Shown here: in pieces, positions 28,699 through 57,495 of the stretch | Position numbering within the stretch: the stretch's first letter is position 1 | Layout: every line of letters begins with the position of its first letter | Origin: an uncultured Acidobacteriaceae bacterium | GTDB lineage: Bacteria > Acidobacteriota > Terriglobia > Terriglobales > Acidobacteriaceae | Direction of reading: 5' to 3' | Assembly (NCBI GenBank): GCA_963841125.1 | Contig: CAWJBH010000010.1 | Coordinates: forward strand, 161,049-225,048 | DNA: 64,000 nt | Position numbers and translations under genes: made by a program | The notes under the pieces: generated by a model | The model's database searches: none | Seen by the model: the letters and a program-made list of their open reading frames with translations, nothing else | Told to the model about the DNA's origin: nothing

Positions 28699-28793
28699 GC
28701 AGTCTCCGGTGGGTGAGTGCGAAACGCAGCGCGCCGTCCCTGATTGTATCGCAGGGCTTGACTTAACAAGTTGATGAGGAATAAAAGCGCGCT

Positions 28794-29581
28794 ATGGATC
28801 TTTCAGGGAAAGTTGTAGTGGTGACGGGCGCTTCCATGGGAATCGGGGAAGCGATCGCGAAGATTTTTGCCGATCACGGCGCCAGCGTGGTGATGCTCTC
28901 GCGCGATGCGGGCCGGGTGGACGCGGCGCGCGGGCGCGTAGGGCAGGGCGAGCGAACGCTGGCGATGGCTTGCGACGTGCGGCACCGCGAGGATGTTGAC
29001 CGCGCGATCGGGCTGACGCTGCATCATTTCAAGAGAATCGATGTTTGGGTGAACAACGCGGGGCATGGGCTGCTGGATTCGGTGGCGCAGATGGATATGG
29101 CGGCGTGCCGGGAAATGTTCGACACGAATTTGTTTGGAGCGGTGGGGGCGATGCAGGCGGTGATTCCGGTGATGCGGCAGCAGGGCGGCGGGACGATTAT
29201 CAATATATCGAGCGTGGCCGGGCATATTCCGATCCCGTTCCATGCGGCTTACAGCGCGACCAAGTTTGCGCTGAATGCGATGGGCAAGGCTGCCGGCGTG
29301 GAGTTGAAGAAAGATGGGATTCATGTGCTGACGGTTTGTCCCGGGATATGTGCGGACGGCGTTTGGCAAGAATGCGATTCAGGGGAATGAGTTGAAGCGA
29401 GTGCGTCCGGATCGGTGAGGGGGATTACTGCCGAGCGGGTGGCGCGGGCCACGCTGCGGGGATATTTGAAGCGCAAGAGGGAAGTGATTGTGCCCTGGAC
29501 CATGTACGTGCCGCAGAAGATTTATCAGATTTTCCCGGCTGTGGTGGAGTGGGCGATGGGGAGGATGGCGGGCGTAAGTGA
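28794..29581 (+). CDS. Short-chain dehydrogenase/reductase, at least 2 frame switches; 3' end approximate
   Basis: VVVVTGASMGIGEAIA (TGxxxGIG), VNNAG, ISSVAG, YSATKFAL (YxxxK). Continues as CPGYVRTAFGKN after a shift, then ORF 29415. Confidence 0.8.
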
Positions 29582-29612
29582 GCTTGTAACACAGGACACT
29601 GGGTCACAGGTC

Positions 29613-29927
29613 TTACGAATTACCCAACTCCGCCAGCATGGCTTCCATCTCGCCCTGCGCGTGGAGGTTGCCGGTGCGGCGGGCGGAGGCAATGCCGTCG
29701 GTGAGCATGGTCTTTGGCTTCGGCGATTCGGTCGGCGCGCGCCAGGGTTTGGGCGGCCATGAAGTAGCCAGGAGTGTAGTCGGGACTGGTCTTGAGCAGG
29801 AGGAGAATTCGGCAAGCGAACGATCAAAGTCTCCCTGCTTGGAATATTCCATCGCCAATCCGTAGCGGGCGAAGGCGTCGTTCGGATTCTGAGTGAGGAC
29901 GTCGTTGAGAGCGGCGATGCGGTCCAT
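29613..29927 (-). CDS. Small TPR-like protein; the ORF stays open but appears to hide a compensating pair of frame switches
   Basis: MDRIAALNDVLTQNPNDAFARYGLAMEYSKQGDFDRSLAEF (TPR-like) and the C-terminal GNLHAQGEMEAMLAELG. The middle SSCSRPVPTTLLATSWPPKPW is low-complexity. The alternative frame gives TSPDYTPGYFMAAQTLARADRIAEAK. Confidence 0.5.
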   Translation of the reverse strand: MDRIAALNDVLTQNPNDAFARYGLAMEYSKQGDFDRSLAEFSSCSRPVPTTLLATSWPPKPWRAPTESPKPKTMLTDGIASARRTGNLHAQGEMEAMLAELGNS

Positions 29928-29980
29928 AGGCGGTGTCAGTAGCCGGTTCAGGATGAGATTACTACAACTTCACTTCCACC

Positions 29981-30121
29981 GCCCAAATTGCCGGTAGTGG
30001 TGCAGTTTGGCTTTTGTACACTTTGTCATCCTGAGTGTAGCCGTTTCTCAGGCGTAGCGAAGGATCTCCAGCTTAAGCGGACCAAAGCGTAGCCAAACCG
30101 CACCACTGCCCAAATTGCGGG
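29981..30121. repeat. MITE-like element: 17-bp terminal inverted repeats flanked by a 14-bp direct duplication
   Basis: Direct repeats gcccaaattgccgg (29981-29994) and gcccaaattgcggg (30108-30121). TIR agtggtgcagtttggct (29996-30012) versus agccaaaccgcaccact (30091-30107), 16 of 17 complementary. The core carries gtcatcctgag...gcgaaggatct. Confidence 0.6.
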
Positions 30122-30723
30122 AACTGGCAGAGGCTTCGGGGACTGATTACAATGGCAGCTCCTCGATTCCACAATTCGAGTTCAGATCGGAAGGTTTGCG
30201 ATTGGCTTGTCCGTTTTTCATGCCAGTGGAGAAGTTGGAGAATGCAACGTGGCTGCATGCGGGGCGGCTTCCGCTGGGATGCGGATGGAGCGGGCGCTGC
30301 ACCGCGCCCGGACACGAGGGTGAACTTCCATCCCAGGAAGAACTGCGGGAGTTCTGCAACCTAGGGTATGCCGAGGGTTGTGGAAAGTTGCCGCGGGAGC
30401 GAGTTGGGATTCCGTGCGGTTCGCGGCTCGAACCGTGGGCGGTGAAGGGAAGAGTGCTCGCGGACGCATTCAGATTCGCTACGTCTGCGAGCGTGGGCAT
30501 CGCCCTGCGGAGCACGGGACGCTGGAGTTTGATGCCGTTGACGCGCAGTGGGTAGGAGCCGCATCGCGACCGCCGCGTGCAGCGCATGGCTGAGTGTTTT
30601 CTGGAGTCGTTCCTGGAGAAGAAGAAGGCACGGAAGCGATGCGTGCGGCAGCCAGCTAGAGACGCCCTTCGGCTCCCCAAGTTTAAGACTTGCGATCGAC
30701 AGAAAGAGGAAAGACAAGTATGA
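30115..30723 (+). CDS. Cys/His-rich conserved hypothetical protein, at least 2 frame switches; start uncertain
   Basis: CPFFMPVEKLENATWLHAGRLPLGCGWSGRCTAPGHEG...EELREFCNLGYAEGCGKLP. Then (ORF 30378) IQIRYVCERGHRPAEHGTLEFD. Then MAECFLESFLEKKK. The last frame ends at a TGA overlapping the next gene's ATG (ATGA at 30720). Confidence 0.45.
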
Positions 30724-31221
30724 GCGAAGAGATGCTGATGCCGCGGCCGGTGCGGGACTCGCAGTCGGAGATGGCCGAGATTGTTCTGCCCAATGATGCC
30801 AATCCGCTGGGCGCACTGCTTGGTGGCCGGTTGATGCATTGGATCGATCTGGCGGGAGCGATGGCAGCCCATCGCCATTCGCGGAGTTACGCGGTGACAG
30901 CTTCGGTGGATCACATTGATTTCCTCGTGCCAGTGAGGGTGGGGGATCTGGTGATTCTGCGCTCCTCGGTGAACCGCGTGTTCCATACGTCGATGGAAAC
31001 TGGAGTGAAAGTTTTCGTAGAGAACTACATCGCGGACACGGCGCGACATGTTGCGTCGGCCTACCTGACGTTTGTGGCGGTGGATGGCTAAGGGAACCAA
31101 CGTGCGAGTCGCGCCGGTGATTCCCGAGACCGCGGAGCAGCAGCGGCGCTACGACGATGCTGGGCGTCGGCGCGAGATCCGGCGGGCGGAGCTGGAGCGG
31201 CGAAGGAAGGCAAAACGATAG
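30720..31221 (+). CDS. Acyl-CoA thioesterase (hotdog fold, YciA-like), one frame switch near 31088
   Basis: SEMAEIVLPNDANPLGALLGGRLMHWIDLAGAMAAHRH...VTASVDHIDFLVPVRVGDLV. After the shift, KGTNVRVAPVIPETAEQQRRYDDAGRRREIRRAELERRRKAKR*. Confidence 0.8.
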
Positions 31222-31241
31222 CGATTTTTCTTAGGAGCATA

Positions 31242-31457
31242 TTGGCGGGAATTGTCGCGGTGGTAGTAACGGCCATCGCTTCACTGTTCGTTATTGGGAT
31301 CTATTTATCGATCCACCATCCGGTGGACACGGGAGCGGACACTGGGGCAGTAGGATGGGATCCGATCTCTCTAACAAAACCTGCGACGTGGCTTCTCGTC
31401 CTTGGGATATTTCTGGCTGGGTCCGTTTGGGAGTTTCTTCGTGCAATTCGAAAGTAG
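31242..31457 (+). CDS. Small two-TM membrane protein (hypothetical)
   Basis: 71-aa ORF with two hydrophobic segments, GIVAVVVTAIASLFVIGIYLSI and ATWLLVLGIFLAGSVWEFL. No family recognised. Confidence 0.4.
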   Translation: MAGIVAVVVTAIASLFVIGIYLSIHHPVDTGADTGAVGWDPISLTKPATWLLVLGIFLAGSVWEFLRAIRK

Positions 31458-48894: not shown

Positions 48895-48974
48895 AATAAG
48901 GACGGCGGAGCAGGCCTTCAGCCCGCGTCAAGAGTTGGCATTTGAAGGCGTTGGCTCAGCTTCGAATTTCTTGT

Positions 48975-49094
48975 GGCGTCATCCCGAGCGGAGCCGCTTT
49001 TCAGGCGGAGCGAAGGATTCTCCGCACCGCGCATGCGTTTGTTCACGCGGGATCCCTCACCCAGCTGGACTGCGCCGGGTTTCGGGATGACGCC
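48975..49094. repeat. 120-bp inverted-repeat element of the GTCATCC(C/T)GAG family
   Basis: GGCGTCATCCCGA (48975-48987) is the exact complement of TCGGGATGACGCC (49082-49094). The interior carries gagcgaaggattct. Related cores lie at 30024-30068 and 54764-54804. Confidence 0.7.
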
Positions 49095-49289
49095 TCGCAA
49101 AGAAGACAATTCAAACTGAGCCACTACCCATTTAAATCGGGCTTCTAGCTCCGAGGTTCCCAACTAGGAACAAAAACCGCAAATGCACCCTGGTTGGTCT
49201 CCGCCGGAAACCGCCAGCCGAACCCCGACTTTCACGCCTCCCGATCGGAACTGTTACCAGCAAAGGCGCGTAAAGCCCCGTAAAATATG

Positions 49290-54704: not shown

Positions 54705-55029
54705 AATGAGTCCTCCAAATGATTTCGGTTTTTTCAGGAATACTGAAGCGGTGTTGTGTGATTGTCATCCTGAGCAAGCGTTCCGGCGACGCCGCGAAGG
54801 ATCTGAGCGAGCCGCGCGAAGTGTCGCGTTCGTTGCGACACAATAATCGCGCGTTTGGCTCGCTTCCCTGAATTCCGAACACGCTTCCACCGCAAAACAA
54901 GAACGGAGTGTTGGAGCTTGGCCGCGTCGGAGGTAAAGCGCCCGAGCCGGAAAATAAACTCCGCCCGGACACACGACCTCAAAACAGGCGTTTATAACAC
55001 TTTCGCAACAAACGGGTCAATCGGGGAAC

Positions 55030-55992: not shown

Positions 55993-57495
55993 CCCGTGTG
56001 GAGCGGACACTCCTGTCCGCTGCTTTTGACGTTGATTTTGACTCTGCCTTTTGACTTTGATCCAGACTGCAGGGGAGCGAAGATTCGTATCAGCGTATGC
56101 CTTCAGGCATACCGAAAGCCAACACCACCGTGGAAGAGCGGCGCTTCAGCGCCGCGCAAAGCCACCCTAAATTAACCCTTGTCATTCCGAACAGGGCCAA
56201 AGGCCCGGTGAGGAACCTGCTGTTGACTTTCGCCGCCACCCCGCACCCGTGTAGAACGGACACTCCTGTCGTTGCCTTTGACGTTGATTTTGCCTTCGAC
56301 TGCGACCGCACCCTCCTAGACGGGGTGCCCCATTTCTCGCGTCCTTTGCGAGAAGTGGGAACCACGGATGCCCGCAGCGCCGTTCTTGAAGTTGATGCTG
56401 CCTTTGACCTGGAAAACTCGTATCAGGATATGCCTTCACGCATACCGAACCCCAACACCCCCGCGGAAGAGCAGCGCTTCAGCGCCGCATAAAGACACCC
56501 TAAATTAACCTTTGTCATTCCGAACAGGGCCGCAAGGCCCGGTGAGGAACCTGCTGTTGACCTTCGCCACCACCGCGCCGCCCGCGTGGAACGGACACTC
56601 CGTCAGTTGCTTTTGACGTTGATTCAGGATTCGTATCAGCGTATGCCTTCAGGCATACCGAAAGCCAACACCACCGTGGAGAGCGGCGCTTCAGCGCCGC
56701 GCAAAGCCACCCTAAATTAACCCTTGTCATTCCGAAAAGGGCCAAAGGCCCAGTGAGGAACCTGCTGTGATGTTCGCCGCCACCCGCACCCGTGTAGAAC
56801 GGACACTCCTGTCGTTACCTTTGACGTTGATTTTGCCTTCGACTGCGACCGCACCCTCCTAGACGGGGTGCCCCATTTCTCGCGTCCTTTGCGAAAAGTG
56901 GGAACCACGGATGCCCGCAGCGCCGTTCTTGAAGTTGATGCTGCCTTTGACCTGGAAAACTCGTATCAGGATATGCCTTCACGCATACCGAACCCCAACA
57001 CCCCCGCGGAAGAGCAGCGCTTCAGCGCCGCGTAAGGCCCACCAAACCCCAGCCGCAAAGCGGCGAAAGAATGCAGCCCACGGCGCAAGCCGTGGGTAAA
57101 GCAGAAAAAGAGAAACGAGCCCCGCAGGGGCGGCAGAGAAATCGCCCGTGTGGAACGGACACTCCTGTCCATTACCCTTGACGTTGACTTTGAATTCGAC
57201 CGCACCCTGATCAGAAGAGGGTGCCCCATCTTTCGCGTCTTTTGCGAAAGGTGGGAACCACGGAAGCCCGCAGCGCCGTTCTTGATGTTGATGTCGCTTT
57301 TGACCTTGAACAATTCGTATCAGGGTATGCCTTCAGGCATATCGAAACCCGGCACCACCGTGGAAGAGCGGCGCTTCAGCGCCGCGTAAGGCCCACCAAA
57401 CCCTAGCCGCAAAGCGGCGAAAGAATGCAGCCCACGGCGCAAGCCGTGGGTAAAGAGAAAAGGGAACAACCAAGTCCCGTAGGGACGGAAGAGAC
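55993..57495. repeat. 1.5-kb ORF-free mosaic of nested and tandem hairpin repeats
   Basis: Near-identical direct copies at 56082-56488 and 56628-57031 (offset 546 to 543 nt, about ten differences by eye). A diverged third module lies at 57145-57390. gcccaccaaaccc.agccgcaaagcggcgaaagaatgcagcccacggcgcaagccgtgggtaaag is duplicated at 57036 and 57389. All listed ORFs here translate repeats. Confidence 0.85.

Follow-up and report, generated by a model that had tools for sequence, protein, structure and literature searches.

A putative IS1-family MITE between two divergent genes of an acidobacterium, and the repeat family to which it belongs

Short, non-coding, self-complementary repeats that lie between genes in many copies are known from bacteria as the Correia/NEMIS, ERIC, RUP and REP/BIME sequences, and in all these traits, as in their length of about 50-200 bp, they resemble the MITE described here. 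We know of no sequence similarity between any of them and the present family. Correia elements duplicate TA; REPs, which are associated with RAYT (IS200/IS605-like) enzymes, have neither a terminal inverted repeat (TIR) nor a target-site duplication. Transposition of IS6/IS26 elements proceeds through cointegrates. Members of the IS1 family make target duplications of 8-9 bp (ISfinder table). A terminal signature, GGnnnTG, has been noted for both IS1 and IS6/IS26 (PMC6807381, citing Siguier et al. 2015).

Here we analyse one locus in a 64-kb stretch of DNA, referred to throughout as the window, for which an initial annotation had proposed a MITE-like element with 17-bp TIRs and a 14-bp flanking duplication. 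We conclude that the sequence at 29993-30110 is very probably an IS1-family MITE, one of a large Acidobacteriota (Terriglobia) family with 8-9-bp duplications. The apparent anomaly, a 14-bp duplication hinting at an unknown transposase, thereby gives way to an ordinary duplication of 8-9 bp.

The element, its ends and its insertion site

The features of the locus are as follows.

29613-29927, minus strand: left neighbour, a gene, starting at 29927 and interrupted by single-base indels, for a small TPR protein
29984-29992, no strand assigned: left copy of the target-site duplication, CAAATTGCC, adjoining the left TIR and present as a single copy in the empty sites of relatives
29993-30110, plus strand: the whole MITE, 118 nt, with no ORF
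29993-30012, plus strand: left TIR, GGTAGTGGTGCAGTTTGGCT, with a GGnnnTG tip
30025-30069, plus strand: internal hairpin module, GTCATCCTGAG...GCGAAGGATCTCC, a cargo of the MITE common to other element types
30091-30110, minus strand: right TIR, AGCCAAACCGCACCACTGCC, complementary to the left TIR at 18 of 20 positions
30111-30119, no strand assigned: right copy of the target-site duplication, CAAATTGCG, matching the left copy at 8 of 9 positions
30124-30153, plus strand: promoter-like site CTGGCA-18-TACAAT of the Cys-rich gene, from a consensus scan, its function putative
30196-30660, plus strand: right neighbour, a gene coding for about 152 aa (a conserved Cys-rich hypothetical protein) that starts at 30196 or 30220, has an approximate end coordinate and is interrupted by single-base indels

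The strings reported earlier are all present where they had been placed. Two direct repeats, gcccaaattgccgg (29981-29994) and gcccaaattgcggg (30108-30121), agree at 13 of 14 positions, and between them the inverted repeats agtggtgcagtttggct (29996-30012) and agccaaaccgcaccact (30091-30107), matching at 16 of 17, enclose a core of 78 nt (30013-30090). The direct repeats had been described as lying immediately outside the TIRs; this holds on the right, while on the left an extra 't' at 29995 separates the two. Nor is 17 bp the full length of the TIRs at this locus, since a repeat search of the window extends the inverted repeat to 20 nt per arm (29993-30012 and 30091-30110, 18/20), beginning with GG; about 17-18 nt are what is common to the autonomous elements considered below. 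Over its initial 17 nt the left arm does not differ from the consensus of the family or from that of the IS units, and the consensus arm of the family, about 20 nt long, is GGTAGTGGTGCAGTTTGRC, with the terminus string GGTAGTGGTGCAGTTTG. Within the window, the 17-nt TIR occurs at these two sites only when up to three mismatches are allowed (0.13 chance matches expected), and every other match to the 14-mer direct repeat is at least three mismatches away.

The string GG(T/C)AGTGG starts both ends of the element and also a copy at an unrelated locus, L007, and a profile of 43 family copies likewise opens at GG. The GG of the left 14-mer and the GCC of the right one therefore belong to the element. 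As in other MITEs, the sequence is short, non-coding and framed by terminal inverted repeats (20-nt arms, 18/20); 118 nt are too few for a transposase. The single-strand fold of the region is strong (-61.9 kcal/mol, z = -5.2), which merely reflects the long arms together with the internal hairpin, and an Rfam search over 29800-30300 gave no family beyond chance (E at least 6.2) at gathering and permissive thresholds alike.

The flanking genes allow the locus to be compared with its relatives. Rebuilt across frameshifts, the Cys-rich protein has more than 1400 homologues, the best of them 87% identical, and those that are named come mostly from 'Candidatus Sulfotelmatobacter' MAGs. Orthologous loci were fetched for five of these homologues and 12 sequences were compared. 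In the relatives the genes follow one another in a conserved order, SDR / TPR / Cys-rich / 4HBT thioesterase, but the spacer between the TPR and Cys-rich genes, about 268 nt long in the window, measures 143-184 nt in the 12 relatives, and the element at 29993-30110 is absent from all 12 orthologous intergenic regions. The two closest lineages (L001; L008/L009) align across the junction with one CAAATT(A/G)CC each, CAAATTACC in L001 and CAAATTGCC in L008/L009, within the junction strings ...CTCTCCGCCCAAATTACCCGAAACTGGCAGAGG... and ...CTCTCCAAATTGCCGGGAAACTGGCGGAGG..., respectively. These are the empty sites in related genomes that the initial annotation had predicted and that a MITE should have. 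Since each holds one copy, about 127 nt of the window are a real insertion, with duplicated pre-existing sequence on its flanks. The element is thus a genuine miniature transposon insertion between two divergent genes, and the proposal is borne out that it is MITE-like, non-coding, bounded by TIRs and accompanied by a target-site duplication.

The same evidence bears on a quite different reading, namely that the region is an immobile, locus-specific regulatory palindrome or an operator-like pair of 25-nt direct repeats between divergent promoters. The 14-mer repeat can indeed be stretched to 25 nt (21/25), giving units at 29976-30000 and 30103-30127 that lie 127 nt apart and are each quasi-palindromic, and the divergent genes and the strong fold (z = -5.2) would suit such a role. 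The stretched repeat nevertheless overlaps the inverted-repeat tips, so that its extension consists of TIR tips plus flank bases; moreover, the feature is missing from every orthologous locus, and more than 100 unrelated loci with unrelated flanks carry the element. We regard this reading as extremely unlikely, and a function of the pair as operators or in looping was discarded in view of the empty sites and the dispersed family.

As to consequences for the miniature transposon's neighbours, the promoter-like CTGGCA-18-TACAAT starts 4 nt past the right duplication, remains intact despite the insertion and is kept in relatives, whose orthologous sequences read TTGGC/CTGGC ... TAGAAT/TACAAT. The element would accordingly sit in the non-transcribed spacer of the divergent genes, a short way upstream of the right gene's -35, leaving both putative promoters intact and presumably being neutral for them. 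That neither promoter is disrupted is probably why the insertion was tolerated.

Several other observations were made around the locus. The genes at 28780-31300 (SDR, TPR, Cys-rich, thioesterase) are interrupted, in comparison with both L001 and L008, by 10 or more single-base indels; in the approximately 2.5 kb around the element, the rate is about one per 250 nt against the two relatives. A noisy long-read assembly explains this better than pseudogenes would, and it makes conclusions from single bases in the window unsafe, junctions included. Relative to both closest relatives there is also a 30-nt insertion at 29571-29600, in the convergent SDR-TPR spacer. Just upstream of the TPR start, some relatives have heptamer tandem repeats, CAGTGAT three times in L003 (2817-2880) and CAGTTCT two to three times in L002 and L017; number and sequence vary among the relatives (L012 too), and the window has none. 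The tract, in what would be the TPR gene's leader or promoter, may be of a contingency type or prone to slippage. Finally, two matches to the Rfam family Acido-Lenti-1 lie on the minus strand at 57051-57096 and 57405-57450. The two are separated by 354 nt and both score 48.7 bits, where the gathering score is 37. Together with the protein matches, they place the window in Acidobacteriota.

A dispersed family and the length of its duplications

Copies of the element are widespread in soil and peat. A pattern made of the core and the inner right arm, which made no demand on the TIR tips, was found at no fewer than 120 metagenomic loci from these habitats, and most of the copies so retrieved are elements of about 120 nt with both arms present. 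With nhmmer, 78 of 140 matches were full length. From 43 non-redundant full-length copies out of soil and peat metagenomes we derived a 120-nt consensus, GGTAGTGGTGCAGTTTGGCTTTTACACGACTTTGTCATCCTGAGCGTAGCCGTTTTTCAGGCGTAGCGAAGGATCTCCCGCTTAACCGGCCTAACGCGTAAGCCAAACTGCACCACTACC. The element at 29993-30110 matches the corresponding profile over positions 1-119 (E 8e-32) and is identical to the consensus at 107 of 120 positions. A strict pattern, requiring the terminus and subterminal bases, retrieved from the genome collection a single unrelated locus, L007, in an uncultured Acidobacteriota MAG; it has the same terminus and core, and two family copies lie there. The strict pattern matched nothing in the metagenomic contigs, for which it was too strict, and no match was obtained in the plasmid collection with the consensus as query or in the viral collection with the core pattern. 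Multiple dispersed copies, a further hallmark of MITEs, are accordingly seen at 120 or more metagenomic loci, two or three times in the window and twice in L007. Our search of the literature found no description of the family and no paper with its sequence strings, and the family itself is probably undescribed, though no new kind of element.

The two further members of this TIR class in the window are these.

48947-49128, plus strand: second element, 182 nt, with two hairpin modules and the TIRs GGCGTTGGCTCAGCTTCGAA and TTCAAACTGAGCCACTACC
about 54744-54891, plus strand: third element, older, its interior different and its arms decayed, coordinates approximate

Other copies of the gtcatcctgag repeat in the window had been thought to lack TIRs, and this needs correction, as the second element possesses them and the third retains decayed arms. 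The second is flanked by an 8-bp duplication, CATTTGAA (48939-48946) and CATTTAAA (49129-49136). The third can be aligned from end to end with an element of 143 nt whose TIRs are good (L106 9512-9654), and no recognisable duplication was found beside it.

The termini also bound non-autonomous elements of 49, 352 and 514 bp (L040, L154 and L155). The smallest of these, at L040 2786-2834, comprises nothing but a short loop and two 20-nt arms that match perfectly (variant GGTAGTGCCTCAGTTTGAAA), and it is flanked by 8-bp duplications, CCTGATGA and CCTGATCA; the arms alone thus appear sufficient for insertion. Not all copies are complete. That at L007 5120-5210 has one recognisable arm, which makes it unusable for measuring duplication length. 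In L031, L033, L091 and L112 the left arm is missing and two to three tandem repeats of 10-20 nt that include GTCATCC take its place, and in L141 a copy without the left arm is flanked by a 24-nt direct repeat. Such copies suggest that the hairpin can also be rearranged or duplicated by a second route, one that does not involve the transposase.

The search for further TIR-bounded copies, called for by the initial annotation, thus yielded many, and they are flanked by duplications. Scoring was confined to copies with both arms recognisable. Among these, 26 non-redundant family copies have flanking 8-bp repeats with at least 7 of 8 positions matching, 18 of the 26 being perfect; by our own calculation about 0.2 such repeats would be expected by chance in 48. 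All the duplicated sequences are different, so that the duplication length is fixed for the family while the sequence is unrelated from site to site, as is usual for MITEs. Duplications of 8 bp also flank the 49-nt element of L040, the 352-bp element of L154, the 514-bp element of L155, the element at 48947-49128 and three transposase-bearing units. In sum, the duplication is 8 bp at 33 other elements bounded by these termini and exceeds that length at none of them.

Read directly, the duplication at 29993-30110 is CAAATTGCC/CAAATTGCG, 9 nt with 8/9 matching, and in its length it differs from every other scored case, all of 8 nt. A duplication of 8 bp plus one 1-nt indel is an equally simple reading, made plausible by the error rate of the assembly.

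How the 14 bases first reported arise can be traced base by base. From left to right they comprise GCC (3 nt), the 9 nt of the true duplication and GG (2 nt). The GCC is flank on the left and TIR tip on the right, the GG is TIR tip on the left and flank on the right, and both flank strings are already found in the empty sites of the relatives, so that the five extra matches are a coincidence in a genome of 60% G+C. A MITE with 17-bp TIRs and a genuine 14-bp target duplication, made by an unusual transposase with a 14-nt stagger, would explain the 13/14 agreement of the 14-mers and the single copy in relatives, and the agreement would even become 14/14 if a 1-nt deletion were assumed in the right copy (L008 has GCCGGG). 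Yet both ends of the element in the window, the copy in L007 and the 43-copy profile begin with GG, the 33 other elements have 8 bp and none more, and GCC and GG pre-exist in the empty sites. A preference for CC...GG was also looked for in the flanks of the family's insertion sites and was not found. A 14-nt stagger is therefore very unlikely, and the apparent 14-bp duplication, described as unusually long, is a misreading of the element's ends.

Two other origins of the flanking repeats were weighed together, site-specific integration at an att-like core and an artefact of the noisy long-read assembly. The GCCAAAC(C/T)GC of the TIR does resemble the target GCCCAAATTGC at 7-8 of 11 positions, but the duplicated sequences differ at all of the 26 or more insertion sites and hence share no core. 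Likewise, an assembly with about one single-base indel per 250 nt invites suspicion, but the element matches an independently sampled family from end to end. Either origin is hardly credible, and transposition with an 8-9-bp duplication remains the preferred reading.

Units with the same termini that carry transposase genes

A terminus-only scan of viral contigs returned 17 loci and led to longer, transposase-bearing units. The same 17-nt termini and 8-bp duplications bound units of 2.2-4.6 kb at three independent sites, and every one of them codes for a Terriglobia transposase of the IS1 family.

L145 354-3780: IS1-type unit of 3427 bp, both termini perfect, flanked by the perfect 8-bp duplication GAAACGCG
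L159-L166: IS1-type unit of P0192, 4576 bp, with identical termini, GGTAGTGGTACAGTTTG, and the duplication GTCACGCG
L167: IS1-type unit of P0164, 2225 bp, with related termini and the duplication GGCACGTT/GGCACGTA

Termini common to transposase-encoding elements, again expected of a MITE, are therefore found on three units, and their GGTAGTG ends with 8-bp duplications, at these three as at 26 MITEs, are of the GGnnnTG and 8-9-bp type characteristic of IS1. In L145, the sole transposase-like gene consists of two ORFs separated by a -1 shift, an orfA/orfB arrangement, and once the two halves are fused the match to transpos_IS1 runs unbroken across the shift (E 2.6e-15). At least 8000 homologues of this fused protein exist; the best 120 are mostly of about 274 aa and, where named, are called 'IS1 family transposase' and come from Terriglobia or Acidobacteria MAGs. 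Following up two of these homologues, P0192 and P0164, led to the units in L159-L166 and L167.

The partner transposases contain the DDE_Tnp_IS1 catalytic domain. Against Pfam PF03400, with its gathering score of 24.1 bits, P0192 scores 33.4, P0164 24.3, P0121 28.8 and the fused L145 protein 28.0 bits. The best NCBIfam family is transpos_IS1 (NF033558), with 46-65 bits (E 4e-12 to 6e-18), although the curated equivalog cut-off of 100 bits is not reached. A best match by a wide margin that nonetheless falls below the cut-off indicates a distant branch of IS1.

Mobilisation of the same MITE by an IS6/IS26-family transposase deserves consideration here, since 9 of the 14 positions of the consensus GGTTCTGTTGCAAA recur in the TIR, among them the conserved G1, G2, G7 and G10, and since members of that family make 8-bp duplications (PMC6807381). 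The transposases within these termini also give weak matches to the IS6 model NF033587, but these, at 22-28 bits, are far from the cut-off of 125, and matches to Pfam DDE_Tnp_IS240 stay below its gathering score, so that the proteins are not of IS6 type; the same proteins do far better against IS1, at 46-65 bits and with DDE_Tnp_IS1 above gathering. In addition, a tblastn search with Tnp26 produced nothing significant in 0.9 Mb of loci, and the cointegrate route fits poorly with hundreds of simple 120-bp insertions. We therefore consider an IS6/IS26 enzyme very unlikely and favour one of the IS1 family. A weak Tnp26 match in L110, considered as a transposase, proved to be an unrelated gene.

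In the 64-kb window itself, tblastn detected no transposase and the TIR scan no longer element with these termini. Pairs of TIRs 0.3-5 kb apart in the metagenomic loci were considered as autonomous units and rejected, being adjacent MITEs or solo arms with no transposase. A short remnant resembling the C-terminal part of an IS1-family transposase (71% over 28 aa) is present in the Acidobacteriota MAG of L007 (1095-1178), where a decayed MITE copy lies about 0.8 kb away, at 1900-2006.

Besides transposases the units carry other genes: an N6_N4 DNA methyltransferase and unknown ORFs in L159-L166, a Fic-domain protein in L167 and a predicted membrane protein in L145. Judged from their sequences, they appear to behave as small cargo-carrying transposons with clean 8-bp duplications. 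The MITE and the IS1-type units have only the terminal 17-18 nt in common, which makes the MITE a case of IS1-type ends around foreign cargo rather than a simple deletion derivative.

From these termini we infer mobilisation in trans by an IS1-family transposase. An IS1-family DDE transposase encoded elsewhere in the genome would bind both termini, excise or copy the element and join it to a target cut with a stagger of 8-9 nt. Repair of the stagger would then give the flanking duplication CAAATTGC(C).

The hairpin interior and the place of the family among known systems

The hairpin core of the family (consensus positions 34-78) is about 97% conserved among the 43 copies, against about 66% for the linker at 18-33, figures that are partly biased by the scan pattern. 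The core contains a direct repeat, GCG(T/G)AGC twice, and two mutually exclusive stems, ATCCT/AGGAT and CCTGA/TCAGG. The module recurs within other element architectures. The initial annotation had suggested that TIR-bounded elements mobilise such hairpins, and the core does travel inside them, so that a vehicle has been identified for the widespread GTCATCCTGAG...GCGAAGGATC hairpin.

Because of its conservation of about 97% and its recurrence in other architectures, the hairpin may have a function of its own. More specifically, it might be a functional cis-module (a host-factor site, a terminator or insulator, or a transposition requirement) spread by IS1-type termini, a reading that we hold to be doubtful. 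In the same vein, this IS1 branch might carry cargo of any kind, from 49 nt to 4.6 kb in length and including methyltransferase and Fic genes.

No new mechanism is revealed by the MITE family. What is gained is a definition of an abundant acidobacterial repeat family by a 120-nt consensus, its termini, an 8-bp duplication and an IS1-family partner. This should be useful in annotating genomes and MAGs of soil Acidobacteria, in repeat masking and in reading assembly breaks.

Among described systems, IS6/IS26 shares with the family the GG...G7...G10 termini, with 9 of 14 positions agreeing with GGTTCTGTTGCAAA, and the 8-bp duplication. It differs in that the associated transposases are closer to IS1 and in that a cointegrate-only mechanism does not suit simple MITE insertions.

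The IS1 family as represented in ISfinder, which includes single-ORF and cargo-carrying members of the ISMhu11 type, is alike in the GGnnnTG ends, in the duplication of 8-9 bp, in the DDE_Tnp_IS1 domain of the units' transposases and in the orfA/orfB -1 shift of L145. From IS1 of Escherichia coli the transposases of the units are distant, being single ORFs of about 274 aa below the NCBIfam IS1 cut-off, and the autonomous units found here all carry cargo, be it a methyltransferase, a Fic protein or unknown ORFs. With these units the MITE has only its termini of 17-18 nt in common, and its interior is an unrelated, conserved hairpin module.
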